Below are positions 1 through 60,409 of a stretch of DNA of 64,000 nucleotides, piece by piece (the first letter of the stretch is position 1; each line of letters starts with the position of its first letter). Location of the stretch: NCBI GenBank assembly GCA_963732945.1, contig CAVTBL010000004.1, positions 273,864 through 337,863 on the forward strand, read 5' to 3'. This DNA comes from an uncultured Chloroflexia bacterium. GTDB lineage: Bacteria > Chloroflexota > Dehalococcoidia > DSTF01 > WHTK01. Below the pieces are notes generated by a model, which was not told the origin of the DNA, did no database searches, and saw only the letters and a list, made by a program, of their open reading frames with translations. The position numbers and the translations under genes were made by a program.

Positions 1-1
1 G

Positions 2-2944: not shown

Positions 2945-3021
2945 TTGACGTCCTGAATGGTGGTGCTAGAGTTTTGCGGTGTAACAGGTGTTACATCAAA
3001 TTCAAGAGTCGGAGTCTCTGT

Positions 3022-3977: not shown

Positions 3978-4014
3978 GACCGCGTGAAGGCAGAGCAGTG
4001 ACCGGATACACCGG

Positions 4015-4965
4015 ATGAACGTCTTCACACTGCCCGACAGCGCACATGGCGCCAAGTTCACGGATACGCTCGAAATCGATCAAGAAGCGCACCGGCTCTA
4101 TGCCGGCGACAATTGGAGCGGCGGTGTCGACATCTTCGATGTCTCGACACCGGAGGCGCGCTATCTCAAGACCGTACGGATGAGAGGCAACCTCTTCGGT
4201 ATCTGCGTCGCCAAGAACGTCAACAAGGTATTCGTCGGCCTCTCGGGCAGCACTCTTGCCGTGGTCGACATCGAGCCTGACTCGCCGACGTTCGAAACCA
4301 TGGTCGCGCGCATCAGCACCGGTGGCACCGGCAACGCCGACCTTATCGATTACGCCGCAGAGCTCAAGAAGGTCTACATCGCCAACCGCAACGACGGCTT
4401 CATGGCCGTCATCGATGCGGTCAACAACGTACTGCTAAAGAAGATCGAAGGCCTGGGTGGAGGCCTGGAGCAACCGCGCTTCAACCCAAGCGATGGCATG
4501 GTCTACCTCGCGGGAAATACCGATGACGTCGTCTACCAGATCGATGCGACGACGGACGAACTGGTTGCGACGTACCCTTTGAACGAGGACTGTCATCCCA
4601 ACGGCATGGCGATAAACCCAGATACAGGTGAGGCCTTACTGGCTTGTGCCAACCGCCAGCGTCCGCACACCGTAATCTTCGACCTCAAGGCCAAGCGGAT
4701 AGCATCGGTTATAGAGGAATGCGGGTCCGGGGATGGCGCCGTCTACGATCCGGTGGCCTCCCGGTTCTTCTTCGCAGCCTCCGGCTTCAGCGCTGGTCCC
4801 GTAGTCGGCATCTTCGGTGGCAACCCGGTGCGCTGGCTTGCGAACGTCCCCACTGGTCCGTTCGCAAGCTGGGTGGCCTTCGATCAAAGCAACCGCCTGC
4901 TCTATGCGCCGACCATTCGCGATGGCAAGCCGGCTCTGCTGAGCTTCGCCCTGCCGTCAACCTGA
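4015..4965 (+). CDS. Beta-propeller repeat protein (YVTN/NHL-like)
   Basis: It has repeated strand-turn motifs (LYAGD, VFVGL, VYIANRNDG, VYLAGNTDD, LLYAP) with roughly 40-50 aa periodicity. No signal peptide is evident. Confidence 0.5.
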   Translation: MNVFTLPDSAHGAKFTDTLEIDQEAHRLYAGDNWSGGVDIFDVSTPEARYLKTVRMRGNLFGICVAKNVNKVFVGLSGSTLAVVDIEPDSPTFETMVARISTGGTGNADLIDYAAELKKVYIANRNDGFMAVIDAVNNVLLKKIEGLGGGLEQPRFNPSDGMVYLAGNTDDVVYQIDATTDELVATYPLNEDCHPNGMAINPDTGEALLACANRQRPHTVIFDLKAKRIASVIEECGSGDGAVYDPVASRFFFAASGFSAGPVVGIFGGNPVRWLANVPTGPFASWVAFDQSNRLLYAPTIRDGKPALLSFALPST

Positions 4966-5005
4966 GCGTCCGGCGCTATTAGAACCCTGAGGGAGAGACG
5001 CATCC

Positions 5006-5500
5006 ATGTACGAGCACATTCTGGTTCCCTTAGACGGGTCGGATCTTGCAGAGGCGGCCGTCCCCTACGCGGAAGAGATTGCTCGCGCCTTCGGCAGCAA
5101 GGTTGCCCTGTTTCAGGTCATCAGGTCATTAGATTCGATCATCGCGGAGACGTTGCCATGGGGTTCGATGAATCCCGCCGAGCACGAGGTACCCCTCGGC
5201 GTTGCCAAGACCAGGTTCGAATCAGAGCAGCAAGCCGCTGAGGCGTACCTGAACTCAATTGTCAAGCAACTCGGAGACAAGGGTGTATCGGCTGAAGTCG
5301 AGGTGGCCGAAGGTGATGCGCGTGATGAGATCCTCTCGTACATCTCCAAAGCCGGCATTTCCCTTGTCGTAATGAGCAGTCACGGCCGTGGAGCGCTGGG
5401 TCGCCTCGTCCTGGGCAGCGTCGCCGATACGATTCTTCGTCGTGCCGGCATACCGGTGCTGCTGATTACGCCTGCCGCAATTGCTCAAGGCGCTCAGTGA
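5006..5500 (+). CDS. Universal stress protein (UspA family)
   Basis: It begins ILVPLDGS and ends VVMSSHGRGALGRLVLGSVADTILRRAGIPVLLI, the canonical Usp ATP-binding tail. Confidence 0.85.
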   Translation: MYEHILVPLDGSDLAEAAVPYAEEIARAFGSKVALFQVIRSLDSIIAETLPWGSMNPAEHEVPLGVAKTRFESEQQAAEAYLNSIVKQLGDKGVSAEVEVAEGDARDEILSYISKAGISLVVMSSHGRGALGRLVLGSVADTILRRAGIPVLLITPAAIAQGAQ

Positions 5501-5744
5501 TCGCGGAGAGAAGCAGCGCCGGTACGTTTCGTAATTCGTAGGACTCCCGGATCAGTTCATCGTGTGGGCGGGTAGGCGTTCTCTGGCGCGCCGAGCGTTC
5601 AGCGCTGCTCAGCGAGAGTCGCTACAAAGCGGTAGGTGGGGCGCTGGCGGATGCCGGCTTGATCGTCGAAGGCGTGCCCTTCATTGAAGAGTCCGCTCGG
5701 GTACGGGCAGCCCTGTTTGAATGTCGAAAGGGCAGATGCTTGAA

Positions 5745-6947
5745 CTAGTTAACCAGCGCTGGGAAGTTGTTCAGGCTGTTATCGTTGAGCGCCTGTCGAA
5801 TGGCGTCCGGGTTGACGCCGATGTCGACGATCTCCGCCTGAAGGTCACAGGAATTGCCCTTGCACCAGTTCCCGGCGGTAACCTGCGCCGGATCGATCAC
5901 GACTATCAGGAAGTTGACGATCGGCACGTTGGTCTTGCCGTTGGCATCCGGGAAAAGGCCACTCAGGACCGGGATCATCTTGACGAGCGACACGCCCGTA
6001 TAGCCCGGCAGGAACGGATTGCACTTGTCATTCAGGGAATAGCGCGTGGTCCCGTCGACGGTTTCGGTCTGAATTATCTTGGCGAGCGTGTTGCAGTCGC
6101 TCGGGACGTTGTCCACCAGGAACTGGACGGAGCTCCTGACCGCCGCGATGTTGTTGCCAGGTTCGGTATCGACGCTGGTTTGGCAGTCCTCGCCAGCAGT
6201 GGCAGCCGCAGCCACGCATAGTGGCGTGATTGCGCCGAAACAGATCGCATCTTTGAGCTTGCGCTCCTCCAAACTGCCGGGTTCGGGGAAACCACAGTTG
6301 GAACCGCCACCAGACGAATCGATGGCCAGGGTCCAGAAGTTGCCGGTATTGGAGCCACAGCCTCCGCCGCTGCCATTCTGGGAGTCGTACTTGATCGTCA
6401 CGACTGAGCCGCCGTGCATCTCGCCACTATCGCCGGTGTTCGGAAGCCCGTCAGGACCAAAGACGCACGTCTTCTCGACGCCGAACGGGGCCATGCCAAC
6501 GCCGCCGCCGACGGAGAAGTGGGTCGCCGACGCACAGACCGAGACGTCGGCTTTGTTGATCCCGAGCACGCGGGCGAACGTCGTGCTGCGGGTCCTCTTC
6601 AGCTTCACCATGATCGTATTGCTCGCGGTTTGACCAGAGCAGGTCTGGTTGAAATAGATTCCCTTTACTTCCGACGCGTCGACGCTGTTCTTCGTGCTCC
6701 AGGTCATGGCGGTTTCGATCGCGGTGCTGTTGCCCGAAGCGTCAGTCTTCAGTTGGCTTGCCCCGGCCAGCGCCATGGCGTCGGCAGCATTTTGCAAATT
6801 GCGTCGGTCATGGGTTAGCAGGCCGAGGTCGACCACGAGGGCGGTGAACCCCAGGACCACTACCATGACGAAGGCCGCGGCGATGACCAGCTGGCCGCTC
6901 TGCCCATCGCCGGCGCGCCCCAGTCGCGAGAGCATGCGCCCTGGCAT
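5745..6947 (-). CDS. tadG: TadG-like pilus-assembly/pseudopilin protein (pair 1), Cys-rich ectodomain
   Basis: The N-terminus is GDGQSGQLVIAAAFVMVVVLGFTALVVDLGLL...NLQNAADAMALAGA, a TadG/Tad_N signature. The start ATG overlaps the tadE stop by 1 nt (TGATG). The remainder contains many Cys residues. Confidence 0.75.
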   Translation of the reverse strand: MPGRMLSRLGRAGDGQSGQLVIAAAFVMVVVLGFTALVVDLGLLTHDRRNLQNAADAMALAGASQLKTDASGNSTAIETAMTWSTKNSVDASEVKGIYFNQTCSGQTASNTIMVKLKRTRSTTFARVLGINKADVSVCASATHFSVGGGVGMAPFGVEKTCVFGPDGLPNTGDSGEMHGGSVVTIKYDSQNGSGGGCGSNTGNFWTLAIDSSGGGSNCGFPEPGSLEERKLKDAICFGAITPLCVAAAATAGEDCQTSVDTEPGNNIAAVRSSVQFLVDNVPSDCNTLAKIIQTETVDGTTRYSLNDKCNPFLPGYTGVSLVKMIPVLSGLFPDANGKTNVPIVNFLIVVIDPAQVTAGNWCKGNSCDLQAEIVDIGVNPDAIRQALNDNSLNNFPALVN

Positions 6948-7405
6948 CACTCCACTCTCATGTCGCTGGTCGACTTGATAGTGATCGAGGACGGTACGCC
7001 GCTGCCAAAGATGCTCATGAGGCCGCCGAGCGGAGTCACCATCTTGTAGTCGTACTGGACCGTCACTCGTGCGGAATCGCCGGTTGTAAAGTCGCAATCA
7101 GCAGGATCGATGGTGATTTGCGAACCTGAGGTGACGAGGCCGCCGGATGAATCCTCAACGCGTTGTTTGATGCTGTCACAGGTTGCATGAACGGCGGCCA
7201 GCCTCGCACCTTCGCGCGCTGAGTTGGTGATGCTGATCCACGCTCTCAGGCCCAGCCCAAAATCGACGACGCCCATGACCAGAATGAGGAAGATCGGCAA
7301 CACCAGGGCCAACTCCACCAGTGCCTGGCCTCGCTGCTTGCGTTCGCCTGTCGTTCGGCGTAGTGCGCCGGCATTGTGTCCGTTCGGAGTCGGCGAAGTA
7401 ATCAT
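6947..7405 (-). CDS. tadE: TadE-like pseudopilin (pair 1)
   Basis: It has RGQALVELALVLPIFLILVMGVVDFG...NAAREGAR, the TadE N-terminal signature. The C-terminus is ...MRVE, as in the other two tadE copies. The start is uncertain (7405 or 7471). Confidence 0.7.
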   Translation of the reverse strand: MITSPTPNGHNAGALRRTTGERKQRGQALVELALVLPIFLILVMGVVDFGLGLRAWISITNSAREGARLAAVHATCDSIKQRVEDSSGGLVTSGSQITIDPADCDFTTGDSARVTVQYDYKMVTPLGGLMSIFGSGVPSSITIKSTSDMRVE

Positions 7406-7810
7406 TTTCCACTGAAATAGTCGGCAGATCAGGCGTGATAAAAAGCGGAAAAAGACTTCCGATAAAGTCAAGAAATAGTCGGGAAAATAAAGTCAGTAGA
7501 GGCCGACGAATATGGCAGATTCAGGAGATATTGCACATAATTTCTGGCAGAAGCGTCCCTCGATGCGGTCGGGAAAAGCAAAAGCTTAATCGGACATCGC
7601 AGGCCACTATTCTCGACCCGACGTCCTCCGCTTCGAGGTCCATGCGAGACCCAGGAAGCCTGTGTATCGGCTCACTGACCCGATGATAACGGCGAAGTAG
7701 CTGTCTGAGTTCCCGCGCCATCGAGCGCGAACTCAGTCAGCGTGGTAGAGGTGTCTCAGAGTGATTCGGCCGGACACGCACCTGGTCCCATATCTCCTGG
7801 CCTGCACGCG

Positions 7811-8950
7811 TTAGCTCCGCCAGATCTTGCGCGCCGTTTTCACGACCAGCTCAAGCTTGGCGTGCTGCTCTTCGAAGCTGAGGGGATTGCCCGCGCCCGA
7901 CGAAGCGAAGCCGCATTGCGTGCTCAGCGCCAGGTTCTCGAGTGGTATGAAGCGGGTGGCCTCGCGGATGCGGCTCTCGACCGCGGCGACGTCCTCCAGC
8001 GCTCCGTTCTTGGTCGTTAGCAGGCCCAGCACGACCGTCGCGCCGCCGCGAACGTGTTCGAGTGGCTCGAAGCCGCCTGCGCGCTCGGTGTCGTACTCGA
8101 GTAGCAGCGTGTCGATGTTGGTTAAGCGAGGGAACATCTGCGCCGCCAGGTGCTCGTAGCCGCCACTGGCGGACCAGTAACCGCCGCCGCCGTTGCCGCG
8201 ACAGACGTGAATCGCGCGCGTGACGCCGCTGAGACCCTCGAACAGCGAGTTATCGAGCTCGGCGTCCGCGATCAGATCGGCCTCGAGGTCGCGACCTTCG
8301 GCCTCGAAGGCTGCGCGCACGTCCGGGTCGGTGTAAGCCTGGCCGTAGTTCGGCGCGTCGATCTGGACGTAGTTGCAGCCCATCGCAATCACGCGGTCGA
8401 CGACTTCTCGCCGGATGAAGTCGCGTACGGCCAGCAGGTAGGCGTCGACCGTCGGGTAGGCGTCGCTCGAGTCCTTCTCGTGCCAGAAGTGGCGGTGGTA
8501 GCTGGGCGCCGTGAACGTGTACTTGGTCCGGAAGCCGGCGTTCTGGCTGAGGAAGCCGTACTCGCTGGTAGCGATGTCGTTGCGCAGACGCAGCGGCGTC
8601 TTGATCACCGTCCCGGGGCCAAGGTTGCGCGGCACGATGTTGCCGGAGCTGTCGCGCCAGAACTTCATGTACGTGATGCGATAGTCCTCGGCGGGACCGT
8701 AACCCTCGAAGGGGGCGTTGGGCTGGTAGCTGGTCGAAGGGTTCCAGCCGACGCGCCGGTATTCGCCGTCCGTGATCACATCCAGCCCGACAGACTTCTG
8801 CAGCTCGATCGCCTCCAGGATCGCCCGGTCCTCGACAGCGCGCAGGTCTTCGGCGCTGATCTTGCCGTCGCGCGCCTGCTGACGCGCCTCGTACAGGTAG
8901 GCGGGACGCAGGAGACTACCGACCGTCTCGGCGCGGGCTGTTGCGACCAT
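7811..8950 (-). CDS. MetE C-terminal-domain-like Zn-dependent alkyl/methyltransferase family protein (paralog 1)
   Basis: It carries VGSLLRP...DGEYRR, the H-x-C motif (IHVCRGN) and STQCGFAS, which correspond to the Zn ligands of cobalamin-independent methionine synthase and its relatives. AAGGAG precedes the ATG. Confidence 0.8.
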   Translation of the reverse strand: MVATARAETVGSLLRPAYLYEARQQARDGKISAEDLRAVEDRAILEAIELQKSVGLDVITDGEYRRVGWNPSTSYQPNAPFEGYGPAEDYRITYMKFWRDSSGNIVPRNLGPGTVIKTPLRLRNDIATSEYGFLSQNAGFRTKYTFTAPSYHRHFWHEKDSSDAYPTVDAYLLAVRDFIRREVVDRVIAMGCNYVQIDAPNYGQAYTDPDVRAAFEAEGRDLEADLIADAELDNSLFEGLSGVTRAIHVCRGNGGGGYWSASGGYEHLAAQMFPRLTNIDTLLLEYDTERAGGFEPLEHVRGGATVVLGLLTTKNGALEDVAAVESRIREATRFIPLENLALSTQCGFASSGAGNPLSFEEQHAKLELVVKTARKIWRS

Positions 8951-9049
8951 GAAAGGGCTCCTTCTAAGACTCGAGGTGATTGGTGATGCTGGTATCGGGC
9001 GCGAGCATGAGGTTGCAGTTGCTGGCGCACCTTCGCGGCGAAGACAAAA

Positions 9050-9966
9050 CTAGCGCTCGGGCCTGACGTCGATACGCGACTCGTCCAGCGTCACGAGATG
9101 ATGAGGTGTCCAGATGCCGAGCTTACCGGCGACGGCCGCTGCCTTGATCTTGGCCGGCGCCTGCGGGTCCCGCGCGAGCGAACCGTAGCCCTCGTTGCGC
9201 AGCCTCGTGCGGATCTCGTCCTCGGTCATGCGTGAGGGCGCCGTAGTCGCGCGGCTTCCAGGTCTCGTCCTTCTGAACGTACTCGTGGCCGATCACAATG
9301 CCCTTCTGCTTCATGAAATAGCGTGGCGCCGTCGGCTTCCATGGCCTGCCACTCCGGAGACGCGACAGCGCGCTGGAACGCAGCGTAATCGTCGAACCAG
9401 AGCTCGGACCAGCCGTCGTGCGTCATGTTGCGCAGCTGGAACGCCTGCAGCGCGGCGTGGCACTGCGTGTAACGCCGCAGGCCCGGCAGCTTGGCGGCGA
9501 TTGGCCCGTGCACGTTGAGCCAGTGGTCGAAGAAGTCGCGGTGGTCGAGGCCGGGCTTGCGGCAGACCATGAAGATCGCGTTGATCATCGACGGCGTGGT
9601 CGTCCCATCGATGATGACGTGCTCGTCGCCGAAGATCACGGCGTGCTGGTCGTCGCGAGGCCAGCGGTCGGTGCGGTCGAACAGTTGCCGGTCGTCGGCC
9701 GGGACCGGAGACCACGACATATCGGTCCCGGGCGTGTTCACGACGAGTGGGTCCTCGTGCCAGAACATCGAGATGCCGACGAAGGTTGGTGCGGGTTCGT
9801 GTTCGTAGGCTTCGGGCAGGCTGAAGTAGTGGTAGTAACGCTCGAGGTTTGGCCGGTTGGCCACCAGCTTGCCGTGGCTATCGGCCCAGTAGTCCTGGAC
9901 CTCGGTGCGGGAGCGCCCGCTGGTCAGGTTGGGATTTGCTGCCGTGATTCGCTTGACTACCATCAC
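9050..9966 (-). pseudogene. Tandem EthD-domain protein, paralog A; frame interrupted twice (pseudogene or assembly indels)
   Basis: It is collinear with the intact paralog at 18711-19646. The frame breaks near 9316 (extra base in an AAA/TTT run) and near 9232. All three frame pieces are recoverable, ending ...LVTLDESRIDVRPER. Confidence 0.7.
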
Positions 9967-10001
9967 ACCTGCCCTCGCTGAGAGACCCTAACGGAGTCTG
10001 G

Positions 10002-10018
10002 ATTCCAATGTGCGGAAT
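10002..10018. promoter_or_regulatory. Imperfect palindrome ATTCCA-ATGTG-CGGAAT (candidate IclR-type operator) in a divergent intergenic region
   Basis: Read directly from the sequence. It lies 36-52 nt upstream of the EthD-A start and upstream of the divergent IclR gene. It is related to the sites at 15366, 15530 and 16692. Confidence 0.5.
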
Positions 10019-10214
10019 TCATTGTCGCGCATTGTAACCTAGGCCCGAAGTATGTCAAGGTAGCCATGCTGTGGCTTGAGGTCGCCCACGCTAATCGCGA
10101 GGCGCAGGGCTTGAATCAATCAGGGTGTTTCGTGTGAGATTTAACGAGGAAGACAAAGTAAGAGTCACTTCGACGGGCAGGGCAGGCTGATATCGTGGGA
10201 TGGGGTAAGGCAGG

Positions 10215-11051
10215 ATGAGCGACGGATCTGAGTCTTCGGCCCAGCGTTCTGGTAACGTCCGCTCGGTTCAGCGGGCGGCACGGATTATCACGGCGCTCGC
10301 GGAGCATCCCTACCCGATGGGCGTCGCCGAGCTCGCGGCGCGTGTCATGCTTTCGCCGGCCAGTGTGCACCGCATGCTTGCGACGCTGATTAGCGTCGGT
10401 TGGGTCGATCAGAACTCCCGCACCGCGAAGTACCGTCTCGGGACTCGCATGCTGGGTATCGGTTCGACCGGCCTGATCACCAGCCCGGTAATCCAGAACG
10501 GCCGCGGCTTCCTGACGCGGCTCGCCGAACAAACCGGCCAGTCGACCGCCCTCAGCACGCTGGTCGGCATGCGCGTCATCCACCTCGCGCGCTCGCCCGG
10601 CGCCAAGATGGTCGGCCGGCCCGACTTCGAACCAGGCGTCTCGCAACCGGCCCACGCCATGGCGGACGGCAAGCTGCTGCTTTCATACCTGCCGGCTACG
10701 GAGCGCGCCTACCTCTACGAGGTCGACGGCCTGCGACGCTACACCGACACCACGATCGTCGATCCCGCCGCCATGGAGCGCGAGATCGAGTGCATCCGCG
10801 AGAGCGGCTACGCCGTCGACCATTACGAACGCTTTGCAGCCGCGCGAGGTGTTGCGGTGCCGGTGCTAGGGCTCGACGGCGAACCGCTGCTGGCGATGCT
10901 CTGCCTCGGCCACATCAACGACGATCCGGCTGAGGATGCGGCGCTGGCGCGTCAGATGCAGTCGCTGGCAGCCGAGATGTCGGACAACATCGCGGTCCTC
11001 GGCGACATGCCCAAGGCGAACACCGAGTTCGCGAAATACAACCTCGAGTAG
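10215..11051 (+). CDS. IclR-family transcriptional regulator
   Basis: It has an N-terminal wHTH (VQRAARIITALAEHPYPMGVAELAARVMLSPASVHRMLATL) and a C-terminal IclR effector-domain pattern. Confidence 0.9.
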   Translation: MSDGSESSAQRSGNVRSVQRAARIITALAEHPYPMGVAELAARVMLSPASVHRMLATLISVGWVDQNSRTAKYRLGTRMLGIGSTGLITSPVIQNGRGFLTRLAEQTGQSTALSTLVGMRVIHLARSPGAKMVGRPDFEPGVSQPAHAMADGKLLLSYLPATERAYLYEVDGLRRYTDTTIVDPAAMEREIECIRESGYAVDHYERFAAARGVAVPVLGLDGEPLLAMLCLGHINDDPAEDAALARQMQSLAAEMSDNIAVLGDMPKANTEFAKYNLE

Positions 11052-11114
11052 CGCATAGACATAGGCATACACATAAAGCACGAGAGTCGCGGCTGACGCC
11101 GCGTTAATCTCTGT

Positions 11115-11168
11115 GCCTATGCCTATGCCTATGCCTATGCCTATGCCTATGCCTATGCCTATGCCTAT
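11115..11168. repeat. Perfect hexanucleotide microsatellite (GCCTAT)x9
   Basis: Counted directly. It overlaps the last codons and stop of the gene at 11165-11684. Degenerate inverted copies (ATAGGC-like) lie at 11052-11078. Confidence 0.95.
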
Positions 11169-11684
11169 GCGCTGATTAGTCGCTTGCCAACGTCCTCGCC
11201 GTAGAAGTGCGGTCCGGTGCCTTGCTTCGGCGCCATGTTCGCGAGAACGGCGAGCAGCTCTTCGTTGCTCGCATCCAGGTCGATCGGTTCGTTGTGGGGC
11301 TGCGGGTAGTCCATGCCCGTGGACCAGTAGACCTCGACGTGGTTGTTCTCTGGATCGCGGAAGTAGCAGCCGAACGCGATGCCGTGGTTCGTGATGCGGA
11401 AGTTCTCGATACCGTAGTCGCGCAGGGCGTGGTACATCTCGCGCAGGTCGTCCAGCGATCCCGATCTTGAACGAGATCTGCTGCGCGTTGGTGTGACGGT
11501 CCGGCGAGGGGCTGATCAGGAACTCGTGGTGCTCCGTCTCCGGGTGAGCGCTGAGGAAGACGCCGCGGCCGTTGCCGCCGTCGGTCACCGTCAGCCCGAG
11601 GATGCGCGTGTAGAAGTCGAGCATCTTGTCCAGGTCCTGTACCGAGATGCCGACGTGCCCAAGCGATGTGACTCGTGTCGCCAT
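11165..11684 (-). pseudogene. VOC/glyoxalase-fold (extradiol dioxygenase-like) protein, paralog 2; one frame interruption
   Basis: It is collinear with 11707-12240. The frame breaks at a CCC/GGG run near 11460-11462 (ISFKI|G|SLDDLREMYH). Confidence 0.7.
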
Positions 11685-11706
11685 TTCTTGTCTCCTCGTC
11701 TCGCGC

Positions 11707-12240
11707 TTAGCGCGTCGAGACTTGCTCCGGCGCCAGGCGCTTGCCGACGTCCGTGCCGTAGTAGTGCGGCCCGGTACCGGCGCGCGGCTCCAGGTCCTCG
11801 ATCAGCTTCAGCAGCGCGTCGTCGCTCTGCGACAGGTCGATTGGGTCGGCGTAGGGCTGCGGGTAGTCGATGCCCGTCGACCAGTAGACCTCGATCCGGT
11901 TGTCCTCCGGGTCGCGGAAGTAGCAGCCGAACGCGATGCCGTGATTGACGACGCGGTCGATCGGGCTGCCGTACTCGACGATGCGCTTGTGCATCGCCTT
12001 GAGGTCCTGCAGCGAATCGACGTGGAAGGAGACCTGACCGGCGTCCGTCTTCTGGTCCGGCGACTTCGCCAGCGCGATCTCGTGGTGCTCTGTTTCCGGA
12101 TGCCCGCTGAGGAACACGACGCGGTCTTCCGGTCCCCGGTCGGTTTCGGTCAGGCCGAGGACGCTCGTATAGAAGTCGACCATCGTCGGCACGTCCCGGA
12201 TGAAGATGCCGAAATGCCCCAGCCCGGTTACTTTTGCCAT
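11707..12240 (-). CDS. VOC/glyoxalase/bleomycin-resistance/extradiol-dioxygenase fold protein
   Basis: It has GLGHFGIFIRDVP...FYTSVLGL...HHEIAL...NHGIAFGCYFRDPEDNRIEVY. GGAGG lies 6 nt before the ATG. Confidence 0.8.
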   Translation of the reverse strand: MAKVTGLGHFGIFIRDVPTMVDFYTSVLGLTETDRGPEDRVVFLSGHPETEHHEIALAKSPDQKTDAGQVSFHVDSLQDLKAMHKRIVEYGSPIDRVVNHGIAFGCYFRDPEDNRIEVYWSTGIDYPQPYADPIDLSQSDDALLKLIEDLEPRAGTGPHYYGTDVGKRLAPEQVSTR

Positions 12241-12250
12241 CGCCTGCCTC

Positions 12251-13418
12251 CTAGCTGAACGCCTGTCGAGCCGCCTCTGCCACGAGCTCGAGCTTGCGGC
12301 GCTGCTCGTCCCAGGTCAAGCAGATTGCCCTGCGCCGTCGATGCGAAGCCGCACTGCGTCGAGATCGCGAGGTTGTCGATCGAGACGTACTTTGTCGCTT
12401 CCTCGATGCGGCGTCGCAGGTAATCGACCTGCTCCAGCTCCGGCAGCTTCGAGCTGATCAACCCGAGCACGACCATCTTGTCTTTGGGAACGAAGCGCAG
12501 CGGCTCGAAGCCTCCGGCACGCTCGCTCTCGTACTCGAGCAGGAAGCGGTCGACGTTGAGCTGCGCGAACGCCTTCTCCGCGATCGGTTCGTAGTCGCCT
12601 TCGGCGTGCCAGCGGCTGCGTGCGTTGCCGCGACACATGTGCAGGCCGACGGTGACGCCCGGCGTGCCGCGCAGGCCATCGAGCGCAATGTTGTCGAGCC
12701 GGATCAGCTCGTTGAGGTAGGCGTCCGGGTCCTCTCCCTCCGCGATCATGCGCGGCCGCACCGTCTTGTCGGCGACGCGCTCGACATAATGCAGCGAGTC
12801 GAGCTGGACGTAGGGCGCGCCGTCTTTGACCAGCGCCTTCATCTCGTCGTTGATCATGCCGGCGAGGTCCTGGGCCAGGTCGAAGCGCGTCGGGTAGGCC
12901 TTCTCGCTGACGCCGGGCTCGTACATGCCGCCGGCCATCGACATCGGGCCGGGCAGGGTGATCTTCCACGGCCCCGGCGCATGCTCACTCAGGAACGCGG
13001 CGTCGGTCGCGACGAAACGACGCGTCTTCTGCAGCTTCTCGCCCGCCACCATGGCGCGTGCTCGCTGAAGCATCGTGTTGACGTCGTTGGCGACGGGCTC
13101 ATCCGGCGTCGGGCCGCGCCACACGTCGAAGATGCGGCGGATCGGCGAGCCCTCTACCGGGACGAGACCGGAGATCGCGCCGGCAGCAGGGTTGCTCCAG
13201 CCGGTGCGACGGTACTCGCCGTCCGTGAACACGCTGATCCCCGACTGGCGCTCCATCTCCAGCGCCTTGAGGACGCTCGCGTCTTCGACCTCGCGCAACT
13301 GCTCCTCGCTGATTTTGCCGTCGGTGAAGGCGGCGCGCGCCTCCAGGAGCTCGGGCGGTCGCAGCAGGCTGCCGACGTGGTCGGCTCGGTACTTGGTCGC
13401 GGTGGTTGTCGATGTCAC
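12251..13418 (-). pseudogene. MetE-like Zn alkyl/methyltransferase family protein (paralog 2); frame interrupted about 20 codons before the stop
   Basis: It has a GTG start after AGGAAGGG and the motifs HMCRGN and STQCGFAS. Removing one base near 12318 restores ...GNLLTWDEQRRKLELVAEAARQAFS*, which is homologous to the paralog 1 tail. Confidence 0.75.
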
Positions 13419-13457
13419 AAACGATGCCCTTCCTAAGCGGTGACGTGGTTTCGGTGT

Positions 13458-14383
13458 CTACGATACCCAGCGCGAAGGCCGGGCGTCGATGCGCGAATCG
13501 TCCAGCGTGACCAGGTGCTCGGGCGTCCAGACACCAAGCTTGTCGTGCTGCGCTGCAGCCTTTATCTTGGCGGGCGCGTTCGGGTCCTTCGCCAGCAGGC
13601 CGCCGTAGTCTTCTTTGAGCAGTCGCGCGCGGATCTGGTCCTCGCTCAGTCAGCAGCGCACCGTAGTCGCGTGGCTTCCAGCTCTCGTCCTTCTGCACGT
13701 ACTCGCGACCGATGACGATGCCCTTCTCCGGACAGAACAGCGTGGCGCCGTCAGCCTCCATCGCGGCCCACTCAGGCGACTGTGTCGCGTGCTGGAACGA
13801 CCAGAAGTCGTCGAACCACAGCTCAGACCAGCCGTCGTGGGTGCTGGTGCCGCGCGCCAGGCTCTCCAGCACGACGTGGTTCTGAATGTAGCGCCTGAGA
13901 CCGGGGAGTTGCGCCGCGAGCGGGCCGTGCACGTTGAGCCAGTGGTCGAAGAAGTCGCGGTGGTCGAGGCCGGGCTTGCGCACGACCATGAAGATCGCGT
14001 TGACCATCGATGCCTTCGTCTGTCCGTCGATCAGCACGTGCTCTTCGCCGAGGATGTCGGCGTGCTGATCGTCGATCGGCCAGCGAATCGTGCGGTCGAA
14101 CACGTGCTCGTCGTCCTGTCGCACCGGGAACCAGGCGCTGGGGTCCGGCGGCTGAGGCGGCGGCAGCGGGTTGTCGCGCCAGAACATCGAGATGCCGATG
14201 AAGGTCGGCTTCGGGTTCGGAGTCGTAGGCCTCGGGCAGGCTGAAGTAGTGATGGTAGCGCTGAAGCGCCGCACTGTTCGCGACCAGCTTGCCGTGGCTC
14301 TCGGCCCAGTAGTGCTGGGCTTCGACTCGCGATCGTCCGTTGGTCAGGTTCTCGTTGGCTGCCGTGATGCGCTTGATCGCCAT
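13458..14383 (-). pseudogene. Tandem EthD-domain protein, paralog B; frame interrupted twice
   Basis: Breaks lie near 14214 (GGG/CCC run) and near 13650. The pieces reassemble collinearly with the intact paralog D. Confidence 0.7.
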
Positions 14384-14409
14384 GCCCGTCTCTCCTTCTG
14401 CAGACTGAT

Positions 14410-15346
14410 TCAGCGTTGAGGTCGCGCGTCGATCCAGTTGTCGCCGTAGACGGCGAGGTGTTCCGGCGTCCAGACCGCGATCTGGTCCTTCAGGGCCGCG
14501 GCCTTGATCTTCGTCGCGATGGCGGGGTCGCAGGCGAGTGATTTGTAGCCTTCCTTGCGCAGACGGGCGCTGATCTCTTCCTCGGTCATCGAGAGCGCGC
14601 CGTAGTCGCGCGGCTTCCAGCTTTCGTCCTTCTGCACGTACTCGCGCCCGATGACGATGCCCTTCTCAGGGCAAAATAGCGTCGCGCCGTCTGCTTCCAT
14701 GGCAGCCCACTCGGGAGACTGCGTGGCCTGCTGGAACGACCAGTAGTCGTCGAACCAGAGCTCGGACCAGCCGTCGTGGGTGCTGGTGGCGTAGGCGAAG
14801 CTCTCGAGCACGGCGTGGTTCTGAATGTAGCGCCTGAGCCCGGGTAGCTGCGCCGCGAGTGGTGCCGTGCACGTTGAGCCAGTGGTCGAAGAAGTCGCGG
14901 TGGTCGAGGCCCGGCTTGCGCACGACCATGAAGATCGCGTTGACCATCGACGCCTTCGTTTCGCCGTCGATAAGCACGTGCTCCTCGCCGAGGATGTCGG
15001 CGTGCTGGTCGTCTGTCGGCCAGCGCTTCTCGCGGTCGAATACCTGACGGTCGTCGGAGCCGAGTGGCTGGTTGCGATAGTAGTGCGTGAACGGGTCCTG
15101 GTCGGCCTCGGAGCGCGCCGGTACGTTCAGCGGGTTGTCGCGCCAGAACATCGAGATGCCGATGAAGGTCGGTTTCGGTTCGTTCTGGTAGGCCTCGTAG
15201 AGGCTGAAGTAGTGGTGATAGCGCCGCAGCGTCGGGCTGTTCGCGACGAGTCTGCCGTGCGTCTCGGCCCAGTAATGCTGGGCCTCCATGCGGGAGCGGC
15301 CGGTGTAGGTGTTCTCGTTGGCTGCGGTGATACGCTTGATTGCCAA
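14410..15346 (-). pseudogene. Tandem EthD-domain protein, paralog C; frame interrupted once
   Basis: A TTG start at 15346 follows AAGGAGG. There is a single break near 14863 (DHWLNVHG|PLAAQLPGLRRY). Confidence 0.7.
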
Positions 15347-15365
15347 GGCCCCTCCTTCACGGTCG

Positions 15366-15382
15366 ATTTCGTTGTGCGGAAT
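15366..15382. promoter_or_regulatory. Imperfect palindrome ATTTCG-TTGTG-CGGAAT upstream of EthD-C
   Basis: Read directly. It lies 20-36 nt upstream of the TTG start at 15346. Confidence 0.45.
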
Positions 15383-15502
15383 CGGCTTCCAACATCGTAG
15401 ACATGGGGCATCGCCTGTCAATACCCTGATCGCCGTTCCCGTAGCGTCGTGGTCACCGATCGACGTTACAGAAGAAAGATGCTGTCAATTCCGTCCGATT
15501 GC

Positions 15503-15531
15503 TTGACAGGCCAATGATGTGGACGTAGCAT
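15503..15531 (+). promoter_or_regulatory. Candidate sigma-70-type promoter TTGACA-N17-TAGCAT for the LLM gene
   Basis: The hexamers were read directly. The same -10 (TAGCAT) recurs at 16675. Confidence 0.45.
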
Positions 15532-15546
15532 TCCGCACCACGGAAT
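15530..15546. promoter_or_regulatory. Perfect palindrome ATTCCG-CACCA-CGGAAT overlapping the -10/+1 of the candidate promoter
   Basis: Read directly. This position is typical of a repressor operator. Confidence 0.55.
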
Positions 15547-15613
15547 CTACTTTCGGATTCCGCTCTTTCGGTTCGACGGGTCAGGCCCGGCTTTGTCTGC
15601 GGAGGTAGCGGCT

Positions 15614-16588
15614 GTGCAGATCTTCGGCAACACGATTCGCTTCAACGTCCAGGCCACGACCACCCGCTGGACCTACCCGGAGTTTCGCGACAACTGGCTG
15701 CTCTTCGAGCGCCTCGGCTACGACGTTGCCTACGTGACCGACCACTTCGTTTCGGAGAACCCGCAGGCCGGCCTCTCGCCGGTGTGGGAGGGTCCGACCA
15801 TGCTCTCGGCGCTCGCGGCCCAGACGACGCGTATTCGCTGCGGCGTCATGGTCGCCGGCAACACGTATCGCAATCCCGGCATCCTGGCCAAGATCGCGAC
15901 GACTATCGATCACGTCTCGAATGGGCGCATGGAGCTCGGCATGGGCTCCGGCCACACGCAGATCGAGCACGACCAGTACGGCATCCCGTACTACACCTCA
16001 GGCCGCCGCCTGCGCGCCTTCGCGGAGTCGGCCAAGATCGTGCGCAGTCTGCTGCACAACGAGCGCACCGACTTCGACGGGCAGTACTACAAGATCACCA
16101 ACGCGGCCTGCGAGCCGAAGCCGGTGCAGCAGCCGTTCCCGCTCCTGGTTGGCGGCATCGGCGAAGAGCTCTCGATGCGCATCGTGGCCGAGTCCGCCGA
16201 CATCTGGAATAACTGGACCTCGCCCGGCTACGAGGAGTATCAGCAGAAGCTCGACGCCCTCGCGCGCCACTGTAAGGATGTGGGTCGCGATCCCGCCGAC
16301 ATCCGTAAGTCGATGCACATCAAACCGATCGTTGGCGAGACCGACGCGGAGGTAGAGGAACGCGCTTCCGTGCCGGGGCGTCATCGCAGCCAGGGCACGC
16401 CGGACCAGGTTACGGAGGCGCTGCTCGGCTTCGTGCGCATGGGCGTCAGCGACTTCGTGTTCATGTTCGATTCGCCGGGTGACTACCGCAGCCTGGAGCT
16501 GCTCGCGACGCAGGTAGCGCCGCATGTACGCGCCGAGGGGCCTCGATTGTTGGAGGCGGCAGCGTCCGCATCGCGGGCTTCGGTGTAG
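15614..16588 (+). CDS. Luciferase-like monooxygenase (LLM) / F420- or flavin-dependent oxidoreductase family protein
   Basis: It has GYDVAYVTDHF, MVAGNTYRNPGILAK and MELGMGSG, which match the LLM pattern. The GTG at 15614 lies 8 nt after GGAGG; the ORF-track start of 15593 is an alternative. Confidence 0.8.
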   Translation: MQIFGNTIRFNVQATTTRWTYPEFRDNWLLFERLGYDVAYVTDHFVSENPQAGLSPVWEGPTMLSALAAQTTRIRCGVMVAGNTYRNPGILAKIATTIDHVSNGRMELGMGSGHTQIEHDQYGIPYYTSGRRLRAFAESAKIVRSLLHNERTDFDGQYYKITNAACEPKPVQQPFPLLVGGIGEELSMRIVAESADIWNNWTSPGYEEYQQKLDALARHCKDVGRDPADIRKSMHIKPIVGETDAEVEERASVPGRHRSQGTPDQVTEALLGFVRMGVSDFVFMFDSPGDYRSLELLATQVAPHVRAEGPRLLEAAASASRASV

Positions 16589-16652
16589 CGGGGTCGTTCA
16601 AGCCTGTACAGTAACCCTTCTTCATAACGCTTCGATGTAAACAATCTCGATA

Positions 16653-16680
16653 TTGACAAGCTGTATTTCATAGCTAGCAT
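16653..16680 (+). promoter_or_regulatory. Candidate promoter TTGACA-N16-TAGCAT for the solute-binding-protein gene
   Basis: Read directly. Confidence 0.45.
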
Positions 16681-16691
16681 GGCGACAGTAC

Positions 16692-16708
16692 ATTCCGATA
16701 AGCGGAAT
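16692..16708. promoter_or_regulatory. Perfect palindrome ATTCCG-ATAAG-CGGAAT just downstream of the candidate promoter
   Basis: Read directly; it extends to 7-5-7 if the flanking C/G are included. Confidence 0.55.
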
Positions 16709-16732
16709 GCCATCTTGCAAGGAGGAACTGCA

Positions 16733-18624
16733 ATGGAAGCCAACTACTGGCACAGCTTCAGGGCAACGCGTCTAACGCGGCGCCGCGCTCTTGCTGCCAC
16801 TGGATCTGCGGCAGCTGCGGCAGCGTTCTTAGCAGCCTGTGGCGGCAGCAGCAACAACTCGTCTAACGGCTCCAGCCAGGGCGGTTCCTCGACGGGGAGG
16901 GCGGAGCCGGCTCCGGTAGCAGCAGCTCCGGCTCGGGAGCGTCTTCCGGCGCCGCGGCGTCGAAGCTCCTGTTGATCCCGACGGACCAGACATCGACGCG
17001 AAAGCGCGGCGGCACGATGAACATCGCCGTCAACGTCGCCACTGCCACGCTCGAGCAGTCGGCCGGCGGCAACGGCTCCGGCAGCGCACTGGTGCACAGC
17101 GCCTACAGCCAGTTGATGCGCGCCAAGATCGGCACCTACAAGGACACGCCTCAGGGCGTCTGGGAGCCGGAGTTCGCGCAATCCTTCGAGCAGAGCGCCG
17201 ACGGCCTCTCGGTCACCTTCAAGCTGCGCGGCATGAAGTTCGACAACCGCGCGCCTACCAACGGTCGCGTCAGCACCTCGGCCGACGTCAAGTACAGCTG
17301 GGACCGCTTCGTCAACACGAATCCGCGCGCCCCCGAGCTGGCGAATGCCAAAGCGGCAGACGCCCCCGTCACCAGCGTCGACACGCCGGATGAGCAGACG
17401 GTGGTCTTTCACCTCGCGTTCCCGTTTGCGCCGTTTTCGGCTTACCTTGGTAGCGCCTTCTTCCCCTTCATATACCCGAAGGAGGCCGACGGCGGCTATC
17501 AGACCAAGGGCGTCGCGCGCGGTACCGGTGTCTGGCAAATTCCCGACGACCGCCCGAGCGGCGACGCCGAGATGATCCGCAACCCGAATTACGTTCACAA
17601 CGGCGCGGACGGCGAGCCCTACTTCGACAAGCTCACCATGCACAGCCTCACGGATCCTTCGACGATCTACGCGCAGCTCAACGCGGGCGCGCTCGAGTTC
17701 GTCACGACCGCACTGAGCCAGGAGGACATCCTCAAGCTCAAGCAGGACAATCAGAAAATGATCATGTATCAGCGCCCCTTCTACGCGAAGGGCTCCGGCG
17801 GCATCTTCTTCGGACGCCGGACAGGATCGCCGTGGAACGACGATCGCGTGCGCAAGGCCCTTGCGATGAACATGGACGCGGAACTGTGGGGCGACAACGC
17901 CAGCAACCGCAAGAAGTACGAAGCCCAGGGCCTGCCGGTCAACACGAAGTGGTTCGCGCGCTGCGGCCCCGGCTACGAGTGGTACCTGGACCCCAAGACG
18001 GACGCTGCCGGGCCCGGCGGTAAGTACCTGCAGCACAACCCGGACGATGCGCACAAGATGCTCCAGGCGACGGGCCTCAAGCTCCCGATCGAGAGCATCT
18101 GGCAGAGGACAACGGACGCATCGCGCGACCCTAACTACGAGGCGATGATGGGTCTCTTCGAGCAGAGCGGCGACTTCAAGTTCACGAACCAGATCTGGCC
18201 CGACGTGAACACCTACTACGCCCAGGTGCGTAACACCGGCGGCGACTTCGACGGTCACAGCATCGCGTTCTACTTCGACCACCACGACTACGACTGGACG
18301 ATGTACCTCATGTACAACGTCAAGTCCACCGACTTCTGGATGAAGATCGCCGGCGAAGACCCGAAGATGACCGACTTCGTCAACCGCCAGCGACGCGAGC
18401 TGGACGGGAAGAAGCGCGAGACCATCTGGCAGGACTTCGTCAAGTACGATCTGCAGCAGATGAACTACCTCCCGTATCACTGGCCTGCCGACTGGCAGCC
18501 CTACTACATCGCTCAGCCCTGGGTCGGTGGTTGGGGTTGGTGGCAGCCCTACATCGAGCAGTACCCGGACGGAGCCGGTCAGATCTACTCGCAGTACTGG
18601 TACGACGCGAGCAAGAAGGCTTAA
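16733..18624 (+). pseudogene. ABC-transporter solute-binding protein, family 5 (peptide/nickel/opine type), Tat-lipoprotein signal; frame interrupted in the Ser/Gly linker
   Basis: The ATG follows GGAGG. It has a twin-arginine motif (TRRRAL) and lipobox (LAAC). The frame breaks near the GGGG run at 16894-16897. The remainder is collinear with the paralog at 62205. Confidence 0.75.
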
Positions 18625-18648
18625 TCTTCGTTCTCTCAGTGCAACGAC

Positions 18649-18687
18649 GGGGTCGGCTTCCATTTTCGGAAGCCGGCCCCGGTTTTC
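18649..18687 (+). terminator. Intrinsic terminator-like hairpin with T tract
   Basis: GGGGTCGGCTTCC-loop-GGAAGCCGGCCCC forms a 13-bp stem with one G-U pair, followed by GGTTTTC. Confidence 0.6.
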
Positions 18688-18710
18688 ATCCGTCAGGAGG
18701 GGCTTTGGCC

Positions 18711-19646
18711 ATGGGCATCAAGCGCATCACGGCGGCGAACGAGAACGTCACTGCGGGGCGTTCGCGTGAAGAAGCTCAGCACTACTGGGCCGAGAGCCAC
18801 GGCAAGCTCGTGGCGAACAATGCCGGCATTCTGCGTTATCACCACTACTTCAGCCTGCCCGAGGCCTATGAGCACGACCCCAAGCCGAACTTCATCGGCA
18901 TCTCGATGTTCTGGCGCAACGATCTCGAGACGATGTTCGCGCAGCGCATCCTGCAGCCCGGCCAGTCCGCCTACAACGCGGACGACCACCAGCTATTCGA
19001 CCGCGAGATTCGCTGGCCCACCGATGACCAGCACGCTGACATCTTCGGCGAAGAGAACATCATCATCGACGGGCCCAAGACGCCGTCGATGGTCAACGCG
19101 ATCTTCATGGTCGTGCGCAAACCCGGCCTCGATCACCGCGACTTCTTCGAGCACTGGAAGCAAGTGCAGGTGCCTCTCGCCTCCAAACTGCCGGGCCTGC
19201 GCCGCTACATCCAGTGCCCCGTCGTGCTCGAGAGCATCGCGCGCGGCTCGAGCACCCACGACGGCTGGTCCGAGTTCTGGTTCGACGACTACGCCGCGTT
19301 CCAGCGGGCCGTCGCCTCGCCGGAGTGGGCGGCGATGGAGGCCGATGGCGCCACGCTGTTCATGAAGCAGAAGGGCATCGTTATCGGCCGCGAGTACGTG
19401 CAGAAGGACGAGACGTGGAAGCCGCGCGACTACGGTGCGCTATCGCTCAGCGAGGACGAGATTCGCGCTCGCCTTGAGCGCGAGGGCTACACCTCGGTCG
19501 CCGCGGACCCGACGGCTCCGGCCAGGATCAAGGCTGCGGCCGCCGCCAACAAGCTCGGCGTCTGGACGGAGCACCACCTCGTGACGCTGGACGAATCGAG
19601 CATCGACGCGCGACCAGAGCGCATCCAGGCACAGCCGCTGCACTGA
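18711..19646 (+). CDS. Tandem EthD-domain protein, paralog D (the only uninterrupted copy), with a C-terminal extension of about 70 aa and unknown function
   Basis: The ATG follows AGGAGG. It has two EthD-like halves (RSREEAQHYWAESHGKLV...LRYHHY and GLDHRDFFEHWKQVQVPLASKLPGLRRYIQ). The tail is SEDEIRARLEREGY...LGVWTEHHLVTLDESSIDARPER. Confidence 0.75.
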   Translation: MGIKRITAANENVTAGRSREEAQHYWAESHGKLVANNAGILRYHHYFSLPEAYEHDPKPNFIGISMFWRNDLETMFAQRILQPGQSAYNADDHQLFDREIRWPTDDQHADIFGEENIIIDGPKTPSMVNAIFMVVRKPGLDHRDFFEHWKQVQVPLASKLPGLRRYIQCPVVLESIARGSSTHDGWSEFWFDDYAAFQRAVASPEWAAMEADGATLFMKQKGIVIGREYVQKDETWKPRDYGALSLSEDEIRARLEREGYTSVAADPTAPARIKAAAAANKLGVWTEHHLVTLDESSIDARPERIQAQPLH

Positions 19647-28234: not shown

Positions 28235-28260
28235 ACATCGCTCGACTGAAAGGCACAATC

Positions 28261-30788: not shown

Positions 30789-30789
30789 C

Positions 30790-31746: not shown

Positions 31747-31747
31747 T

Positions 31748-60367: not shown

Positions 60368-60409
60368 CCGTCACCCCAATCTGAAGAGTAGCTACCGAGG
60401 AGGCTCGTA

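Follow-up and report, generated by a model that had tools for sequence, protein, structure and literature searches.

A 64,000-nucleotide stretch of contig CAVTBL010000004.1 (assembly GCA_963732945.1, positions 273,864 to 337,863 of the forward strand) from an uncultured Chloroflexota bacterium, here called the window, carries a 12-kb island of 11 genes that encode two MetE-like proteins, four proteins with a tandem EthD domain and a C-terminal tail (EthD2), an IclR-family regulator, two VOC proteins, a luciferase-like oxidoreductase (LLM) and a family-5 solute-binding protein (SBP). On balance we favour the view that uncultured soil Chloroflexota (Dehalococcoidia-type) have conserved this island vertically and that it serves catabolism, by which one or several related plant- or lignin-derived aromatics would be taken up and degraded. 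It is very probably a conserved, co-regulated unit. As an aromatic catabolic cluster the island appears to be of a known kind, and what seems to be new here, judging from the sequences, are its two uncharacterised core families. The features of the island, in window coordinates, are the following:

7811..8950, minus strand: MetE-like protein 1, 379 aa, intact, matching Pfam PF01717 and PDB 1YPX
9050..9963, minus strand: tandem-EthD+tail copy 1, directly upstream of MetE-like protein 1, with two +1 insertions
10003..10017: degenerate palindrome with 2 mismatches, in the intergenic region (9967-10214) between the divergent IclR and copy 1 genes
10215..11051, plus strand: IclR-family regulator, 278 aa, closest to BhcR and PcaR/PcaU/PobR
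11165..11684, minus strand: VOC protein 1, one-domain, extradiol-dioxygenase-like, with one +1 insertion
11707..12240, minus strand: VOC protein 2, 177 aa, intact, aligning with the XylE catalytic domain
12251..13418, minus strand: MetE-like protein 2, with one +1 insertion and its last ~20 residues out of frame
13458..14383, minus strand: tandem-EthD+tail copy 2, directly upstream of MetE-like protein 2, with two +1 insertions
14410..15346, minus strand: tandem-EthD+tail copy 3, with one +1 insertion
15367..15381: degenerate palindrome copy beside the copy 3 start
15531..15545: palindrome TTCCGCACCACGGAA, candidate IclR operator, 62-83 nt upstream of the LLM start
15593..16588, plus strand: LLM oxidoreductase, best family match TIGR03560
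16693..16707: palindrome copy TTCCGATAAGCGGAA, upstream of the SBP gene (26-40 nt from the start codon), one mismatch
16733..18624, plus strand: family-5 SBP with a twin-arginine and lipobox leader and an indel near 16888
18711..19646, plus strand: tandem-EthD+tail copy 4, 311 aa, the sole intact copy, directly downstream of the SBP gene

Most of this layout had been described in an original prediction made from the sequence alone, and it is borne out here. A tblastn search with copy 4 (311 aa) recovers three more copies with E-values of 1e-87 to 1e-119, at gene ends that match those predicted for four paralogs of about 310 aa. The predicted duplication of a cassette in which an EthD2 gene is followed by a MetE-like gene was also found, both cassettes being present with their H-x-C, E and C motifs invariant, as were the two VOC genes, the LLM and IclR genes and an SBP of the twin-arginine translocation (Tat) lipoprotein type without adjacent permease or ATPase genes.

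The island recurs widely. By a scan of representative genomes, contig look-ups and a metagenome scan, a gene set consisting of LLM, SBP, EthD2, EthD2, MetE-like, VOC, VOC, IclR, EthD2 and MetE-like was found intact on many soil Dehalococcoidia contigs, and the syntenic loci comprise L001-L004, L022, L023 and L026/L027 (L-numbers denote related loci) together with about 20 soil contigs of the Joint Genome Institute (JGI). L026/L027 equals the window gene for gene, minus an ortholog of copy 4 and with all L026 genes intact, and nothing in the window corresponds to the sequences flanking L026. L022 holds four EthD2 genes, two SBP genes, LLM, MetE-like, two VOC and IclR genes, then an amidohydrolase and an HMGL-like aldolase gene. 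Three arrangements can be distinguished, namely LLM, SBP, EthD2, EthD2, MetE-like and then IclR or VOC-VOC (type A), LLM, SBP (sometimes two), EthD2 and Amidohydro_2 (type B), and EthD2 with LLM and LigXa-type Rieske oxygenases (type C). Three same-strand gene pairs are fixed, EthD2 before MetE-like, SBP before EthD2 and, in the relatives, EthD2 before the amidohydrolase; the first of these is the cassette that the neighbourhood search proposed with the original prediction was meant to look for, and it recurs across soil Dehalococcoidia contigs.

For both the EthD2 and the MetE-like proteins, the nearest homologs are encoded by Dehalococcoidia or Chloroflexota metagenome-assembled genomes (MAGs) or by metagenome contigs, and a proteobacterial origin, which the Aat and Tad genes had suggested, was rejected on this ground. 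In a neighbour-joining tree each window copy of EthD2 groups with its orthologs from L022 and/or L026, and since each copy has its own orthologs, the quadruplication is ancestral, with each paralog retained. Such sequence relationships support the tandem-EthD proteins as core, repeatedly retained components of the island. The neighbours of homologs in cultured organisms (Rubrobacter and Rhodococcus opacus plasmids) were uninformative, and nothing on this cluster was found in the literature searched on EthD, TIGR02118, MetE-like demethylases and aromatic catabolism in Dehalococcoidia.

A shared sequence signal supports, in silico, co-regulation by the IclR protein of the island. Of the 11 loci that cover the region before the LLM gene, 10 have the palindrome TTCCGC-N3-GCGGAA, mismatched at no more than one base, 38-83 nt upstream of the start of that gene (L001 6838, L022 8785, L026 3534, L031 420, L034 1892, L036 3838, L039 941, L043 1910 and L111 1701, and 15531 in the window), and the sole exception, L025, lacks the IclR gene as well as the palindrome. 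Distant loci, 426 kb in all, give a background of two matches. Extra copies in the window are located upstream of the SBP gene (16693), beside copy 3 (15367) and between IclR and copy 1 (10003). Across the whole window the motif is not enriched (7 observed vs. 5.7 expected from shuffles, at up to 2 mismatches), so the argument for an operator rests on position and on conservation across loci, on which grounds the palindrome is a candidate operator of the IclR regulator.

Copies 1-3 of EthD2 are 59-66% identical to copy 4 over the main segments aligned by tblastn. The whole of copy 4 scores 78.1 bits against Pfam EthD (PF07110, cut-off 22) and 75.1 against TIGR02118 (cut-off 30.5); both halves also pass the Pfam cut-off alone, the N-terminal half with 25.3 bits and the C-terminal half with 59.2, while the tail of about 70 aa matches no Pfam family, in keeping with the predicted composition of two EthD-like halves and a separate tail. 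A structural model obtained with AlphaFold2 from a 24-sequence alignment (predicted local distance difference test score, pLDDT, 89.5; predicted template-modelling score, pTM, 0.86) consists of two ferredoxin-like beta-alpha-beta-beta-alpha-beta halves, which form a fused double barrel, and a small helical/beta tail. A Foldseek search of the PDB with this model returned as fused double barrels the putative monooxygenases 3F44 and 3MCS, bacterial chalcone isomerase, the anthrone-oxidase-like 5F9P, coproheme decarboxylase and sulfur oxygenase reductase, and as single-domain matches EthD 2FTR and 4-methylmuconolactone methylisomerase. The structure 2FTR superposes on the C-terminal half with a target-normalised template-modelling (TM) score of 0.85 and 29% identity. 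The EthD assignment of the halves thereby passes comparison both with the hidden Markov model and with structure, which had been named as one of the points on which the original prediction would stand or fall. The likeness of the modelled EthD2 protein to its Foldseek matches is one of fold level only.

A search of 1.84 billion representative proteins gave 3879 relatives of EthD2, and the best 150 of these are mostly tandem-EthD proteins that lack the tail and have about 225 aa; the full architecture with the tail makes up only about seven clusters at 50% identity among the matches listed. The named sources of EthD2 homologs are Dehalococcoidia MAGs. EthD2 shares the Pfam EthD domain with EthD of the Rhodococcus ruber ethRABCD system and with 2FTR, and differs from them by the fusion of two EthD domains, the conserved tail of about 70 aa and wholly different gene neighbours. 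With chalcone isomerase, 4-methylmuconolactone methylisomerase, anthrone oxidases and ActVA-Orf6-type enzymes, which act on aromatic, lactone and flavonoid substrates in catabolism or tailoring, it shares the fold and the pseudo-dimeric architecture; in contrast to that likeness, the query-normalised TM scores are 0.4-0.5 at 8-13% identity, mapping of the catalytic residues is not possible, and the tail is unique to EthD2. An enzymatic role without a cofactor is conceivable for EthD2, and we put it forward tentatively, as somewhat short of an even chance.

The MetE-like proteins consist of a single Meth_synt_2 domain of 379-409 aa, the family named 'cobalamin-independent methionine synthase II'. 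The zinc ligands H248, C250, E285 and C346 do not vary among 11 sequences, three of which are the window paralogs, and the VGS and DGE motifs are likewise invariant. MetE-like proteins 1 and 2 are about 40% identical to each other. A distant third paralog (59138-60367) is 19% identical to MetE-like protein 1 and keeps the zinc motifs. The best NCBIfam match is PRK06520, with 232 bits (cut-off 313), and the closest PDB match is 1YPX (5e-49). MetE comprises about 750 aa in two domains, the N-terminal one of which binds folate, and the cluster proteins are far from it, scoring 22 bits with TIGR01371 (cut-off 930) and 26 with PRK05222 (cut-off 541). They also fall below the cut-offs of the core-synthase equivalogs PRK04326 (64-84, cut-off 406), PRK09121 (46-65, cut-off 392), PRK00957 (21-32, cut-off 258) and PRK06233 (187-189, cut-off 576). 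They thus miss the cut-off of every curated methionine-synthase equivalog; clustering with bona fide methionine synthases would have told against the original prediction. More than 8000 homologs carry the name 'cobalamin-independent methionine synthase II family protein', and they occur in varied catabolic contexts.

It may still be asked whether the EthD2 and MetE-like proteins are folate-independent core methionine synthases with a partner that generates the methyl donor, as in MesD/MesX, acting in methionine or methyl salvage. There are documented core synthases whose methyl donor is unknown and which depend on an obligatory partner protein (PMC7857596), and a core synthase has been described in Dehalococcoides (PMC7005905). 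The cluster proteins resemble MesA-D and other core-MetE proteins, and 1YPX and YxjG/YxjH, in their single catalytic Meth_synt_2 domain with its zinc ligands (H-x-C, E, C) and VGS/DGE motifs, and the tight conservation of the gene pair would fit an obligatory partner as in these precedents. On the other hand, the scores fall far short of every curated cut-off for core synthases and MetE, the 64-kb window contains three paralogs, the many homologs are found in varied catabolic contexts, and the cassettes are embedded among SBP, VOC and LLM genes under apparent IclR control, without a corrinoid protein or MesX; an Rfam scan of the window at the gathering threshold found no riboswitch, and hence neither a S-adenosylmethionine (SAM) nor a B12 riboswitch. 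We consider this explanation quite improbable.

The degradation of an alkyl ether of the ethyl tert-butyl ether type or of an epoxide had been suggested in the original prediction, with a role for EthD like that in the eth system of Rhodococcus, and with the MetE-like proteins as epoxyalkane:thiol transferases akin to epoxyalkane:coenzyme M transferase (EaCoMT). The EthD domain is indeed present twice in each EthD2 protein, the zinc- and thiol-activating motifs are common to the MetE-like proteins and EtnE/XecA, which belong to the same superfamily, and one R. opacus homolog adjoins a gene of the limonene-1,2-epoxide hydrolase family. For comparison we used the product of L116 34268-35359 (Nocardioides JS614 plasmid pNOCA01), which we take to be EtnE from its etnABCD-type neighbours and the literature. 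This gene adjoins alkene-monooxygenase-type genes, and genes for coenzyme M (CoM) biosynthesis are close by. Its product is annotated merely as 'cobalamin-independent methionine synthase II family protein'. As the presumed etnE gene bears this broad name too, the NCBI name appears to lump EaCoMT with the paralogs of the cluster, a point that could be counted in favour of an EaCoMT-like function.

The sequences speak otherwise. By BLASTP, the MetE-like proteins are 27.5% (138 aa), 22.6% (235 aa) and 24.6% (248 aa) identical to the presumed EtnE, that is 22-28% over partial alignments, compared to 38-40% to generic family members, and EtnE carries DGK where the cluster proteins have DGE. The eth partners (P450 EthB, ferredoxin EthC and reductase EthA) are absent among the cluster genes and the annotated related loci, and no P450/ferredoxin, alkene monooxygenase or soluble diiron monooxygenase (SDIMO) or CoM-biosynthesis gene was found among the cluster genes and the scanned open reading frames (ORFs) of the window; the linkage of EaCoMT to alkene monooxygenase and CoM biosynthesis was likewise not found among the scanned window ORFs or the related loci. 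The neighbours are instead of the aromatic-catabolism type. The ether or epoxide explanation is accordingly very unlikely. An uncharacterised catabolic pathway with tandem-EthD components, as originally proposed, stands, and of the substrates then considered the alkyl ether and the epoxide have lost their footing for want of P450, SDIMO and CoM genes, whereas a methylated substrate survives.

An aromatic ring-cleavage context is somewhat more probable than not, and several lines of evidence point to it. In an NCBIfam-type family scan the VOC proteins best match catechol 2,3-dioxygenase, HpaD and BphC. Aligned with XylE, they conserve the equivalents of H153, H199, H246, Y255 and E265 in 10 of 10 orthologs; in VOC protein 2 these are H9, H53, H100, Y107 and E117, of which H53, H100 and Y107 correspond to the second-sphere residues H199, H246 and Y255. 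BphC2 and BphC3 of Rhodococcus globerulus P6 are one-domain type I extradiol dioxygenases, and the window proteins are alike in having about 175 aa and a single VOC domain. The IclR regulator best matches BhcR and PcaR/PcaU/PobR, all under the curated cut-offs. For the LLM protein the four best NCBIfam matches are all F420 subfamilies (the top one, TIGR03560, with 207.5 vs. a cut-off of 231.4), so it is probably F420-dependent. The leader of the SBP (TRRRALAA...FLAAC) contains a twin-arginine motif and a lipobox, and no permease or ATPase domain (BPD_transp, ABC_tran) was found in the island, L022 or L026, which leaves the SBP an orphan.

The wider neighbourhood of EthD2 is also of an aromatic kind. 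Distant homologs (40-50% identity) from MAGs of Chloroflexia, Acidobacteriota and Actinomycetota are often located beside genes for LLM, LigXa-type Rieske oxygenases and thiamine-diphosphate-dependent enzymes, and LigB is found near distant homologs as well. An Amidohydro_2 gene follows EthD2 of the copy 4 lineage in L022 (13938-14999), L031 (4482-5534), L035 (1190-1834) and L044 (1009-2067), and the encoded amidohydrolase is closest to LigJ (4-oxalomesaconate hydratase, 5e-41) and LigY (3e-38). The MetE-like proteins (type A) and the LigXa-type Rieske oxygenases (type C) never occur together in the examined loci, which fits, as weak evidence, the idea that the MetE-like proteins are demethylases.

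Among the closest known systems is the Lig pathway of Sphingobium SYK-6, which comprises the O-demethylase LigXa, the dioxygenases LigZ and LigB, the hydrolase LigY and the hydratase LigJ. The logic appears to be the same, leading from demethylation through extradiol-type chemistry to a hydrolase or hydratase and an aldolase, and LigB, LigXa-type Rieske oxygenases and LigJ/LigY-like amidohydrolases are all encoded in related loci. The regulator of the island is an IclR protein of the PcaR type. The window differs in having VOC-type proteins with Gln at one iron ligand rather than LigB-type dioxygenases, MetE-like zinc enzymes rather than Rieske or tetrahydrofolate-dependent demethylases, four tandem-EthD proteins without a Lig counterpart, an LLM of the F420 type and a host in the Chloroflexota.

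The fold matches of EthD2 raise a further alternative, a tailoring cassette for a secondary metabolite such as an aromatic polyketide, in which barrels resembling EthD or antibiotic biosynthesis monooxygenases (ABM) would serve as cyclases or oxygenases alongside a methyltransferase-like enzyme, the VOC proteins and the LLM. The closest characterised folds do include anthrone-oxidase-like and ABM-type monooxygenases, and the literature on EthD domains is mostly concerned with fungal polyketide pathways, but no core genes for polyketide synthases, nonribosomal peptide synthetases, terpenes or ribosomally synthesized and post-translationally modified peptides were found in the cluster or the annotated related loci, and the uptake SBP, the PcaR-like IclR protein and the Lig-type neighbours fit catabolism better. 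This alternative is highly improbable, and roles in methionine synthesis and secondary metabolism are both less likely than one in catabolism.

Several points count against a pathway for aromatic catabolism as we read it. The second iron ligand of XylE, H214, is replaced by Gln (Q69 in VOC protein 2) in 10 of 10 orthologs and paralogs, so that the VOC proteins lack the canonical 2-His-1-carboxylate Fe(II) triad (XylE H153, H214 and E265). Because of the Gln at the His214 position, dioxygenase activity of the VOC proteins is not assured, and by sequence they are extradiol-dioxygenase-like proteins, not canonical members. The cluster of the window has no genes for the hydrolase and aldolase steps that would follow ring cleavage. 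A literature search gave no precedent for an aryl-O-demethylase of the MetE type. Finally, the proposed functional chain rests on similarity at the family level and on gene context.

With Gln at the His214 position, the VOC proteins keep five of the six active-site residues of XylE. After copy 4, where the relatives have the amidohydrolase, the window has an opposite-strand gene for a Leu/Phe-tRNA protein transferase. In the convergent intergenic region between the IclR and VOC protein 1 genes there is a perfect hexanucleotide microsatellite, (TGCCTA) x 9.5, at 11114-11170; its unit on the minus strand is TAGGCA, and the first TAG is the stop codon of VOC protein 1.

If the island is indeed a catabolic one, its parts might work together as follows. 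The SBP, exported by the Tat system as a lipoprotein, would capture the substrate, and the IclR regulator would bind TTCCGC-N3-GCGGAA and control the divergent operons. The MetE-like zinc enzymes may activate a thiol and take a methyl or an alkyl group off the substrate; this thiol would probably be an amino-acid thiol such as homocysteine, since the VGS and DGE motifs are kept, and the likeliest reaction would be the conversion of a methoxy-aromatic into a catechol by O-demethylation. The catechol-type product might then be handled by the two one-domain VOC proteins in the manner of extradiol dioxygenases, the F420-type LLM would perform a redox step, and the EthD2 proteins could be cofactor-free dimeric alpha+beta-barrel enzymes (isomerase, oxygenase or decarboxylase) or else obligate partners of the neighbouring metallo-TIM-barrel enzymes. 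That the MetE-like protein is a thiol-dependent demethylase, however attractive as a link in this chain, must be regarded as rather doubtful.

A more specific possibility, which we rate as unlikely, is that the conserved EthD2 and MetE-like pair forms a two-component demethylase of aryl methyl ethers which works without corrinoid, folate or oxygen. A methoxylated aromatic derived from lignin, lignans or flavonoids would be bound or activated by the fused EthD barrel, and the MetE-like zinc enzyme would pass the methyl group straight to homocysteine or a similar thiol, yielding methionine and a catechol, which the atypical H/Q/E VOC proteins would then process. Aryl-O-demethylation is a known bottleneck in lignin valorisation. 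A thiol-dependent pair of this kind, if real, would be a fourth mechanistic class of aryl-O-demethylase; a very large family now mis-annotated as methionine synthase would be reassigned, and the 'methionine synthase II' family, which has more than 8000 members among Chloroflexota and further soil phyla, would provide a large reservoir of substrate-specific demethylases. Little is known of the carbon sources of soil Dehalococcoidia and other Chloroflexota, which are abundant and uncultured, and the island offers clonable candidates for their use of plant aromatics.

The original prediction overlooked that the genes are not all intact, for copy 4 is the only EthD2 gene with an uninterrupted ORF. 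As sequenced, 7 of the 11 island genes are not intact, copies 1-3, VOC protein 1, MetE-like protein 2 and the SBP being named as frameshifted. Gene-by-gene alignment with the intact orthologous cluster L026 places eight frameshifts in the island, seven of them +1 insertions: two in copy 1 (~9230 and ~9313), one in VOC protein 1 (~11458), one in MetE-like protein 2 (~12319), two in copy 2 (~13649 and ~14215) and one in copy 3 (~14859-14869). The eighth is an indel of a length not divisible by three near 16888, in a low-complexity linker of the SBP, which shifts the reading frame between the leader-linker part and the mature domain. An alignment of the four copies at the DNA level shows copies 1-3 each split across two or three reading frames by single extra bases, and deletion of the five inserted bases restores full-length proteins of 303-311 aa (303 aa for copy 1) with no internal stops. 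Single-base corrections likewise restore VOC protein 1 and the C-terminus of MetE-like protein 2. The public gene call P0109 (245 aa; P-numbers denote database proteins) is exactly the truncated ORF of copy 1, and P0121 is an intact ortholog of copy 1 with more than 90% identity.

These eight frameshifts are likely to be errors of a long-read assembly rather than signs of gene decay. All seven clearly aligned events are +1, with no nonsense mutations and no larger deletions among them relative to L026, and the sequence past each shift is as ortholog-like as that before it (68-82% identity in the corrected frame). Unrelated genes outside the island are frameshifted too, as was found by a Viterbi scan of the coding frame and by inspection: a gene for a repeat-rich surface protein (33722-37947; bMG10, DUF11 and SpaA-like domains) changes frame at ~35946 and ~36702, its motif QTVTCTLT.TPTGTYT.TIPVTAP carrying on in the next frame at both places, and the TadE/TadG-like genes at 25598-27310 change frame at ~25779, 26322, 26673 and 26808, which brings the whole window to at least 14 frameshifts. 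The sister assembly L111 (European Nucleotide Archive ERZ25039504, contig_37511, 1-7000) holds the same island, similarly fragmented, with EthD gene calls of 88-162 aa, an SBP split into 358 and 159 aa and a broken gene for an unrelated carboxyltransferase. The form of its contig name (contig_NNNNN) matches that of long-read MAG records, and its fragmentation indicates systematic indel errors in that assembly series. The JGI contigs, the third-party-annotation (TPA) soil MAGs and the other examined contigs have the island intact. We favour assembly error on the grounds that all clear events are +1, that the downstream sequence is conserved and that both unrelated genes and L111 are frameshifted.

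Two observations argue in the opposite direction and leave room for real decay, in which the eight frameshifts would be true and 7 of the 11 genes recent pseudogenes. Inside the island there are ~0.7 frameshifts per kb, a density about five times that of the remaining window sequence, and the inserted bases lie mostly outside homopolymers, which is unusual for nanopore errors. The absence from the window of the amidohydrolase linked to copy 4 in the relatives could also be taken as a sign of loss. Decay accounts less well for the exclusively +1 direction of the clear events, the undiminished conservation after each shift and the same fragmentation in another long-read assembly, and we think it improbable. 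If the frameshifts are assembly errors, the gene calls made on this long-read assembly cannot be relied on; the public annotation has 7 of the 11 island genes in truncated form.

Programmed frameshifting, or a separate ORF for the tail, was also considered, as suggested by several database proteins of 237-250 aa. It was rejected, since these proteins are N-terminally truncated calls or the frameshifted window ORF, and since the orthologs are contiguous ORFs and the shift sites are not conserved.

Outside the island, a second catabolic module was found at 58085-64000:

58085-59011, minus strand: lactonase, SMP-30/gluconolactonase-like
59138-60367, plus strand: MetE-like protein 3, distant
60410-61177, plus strand: HpcH/HpaI aldolase
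61297-62151, minus strand: IclR-family regulator
62262 to the window end (64000), plus strand: SBP_bac_5 protein

With this module, the combination of a MetE-like protein, an IclR regulator and an orphan family-5 SBP recurs in this genome.

No tRNA genes and no Rfam family at the gathering threshold were found in the whole 64-kb window. A Tad/Flp pilus locus at 27422-32665 encodes RcpC/CpaB, an ATPase that resembles a response-regulator-ParA/CpaE protein and two T2SSF proteins of the TadB/TadC type, with an ORF at 29481-30788 located between the CpaE-like and TadB genes; TadE/TadG-like genes are scattered in the window and are also found at 5745-7471 and 39242-40810. A 531-aa protein encoded at 53672-55267 consists of a complete DUF5996 domain (E 5e-126) fused to a DsbA/thioredoxin-like domain.

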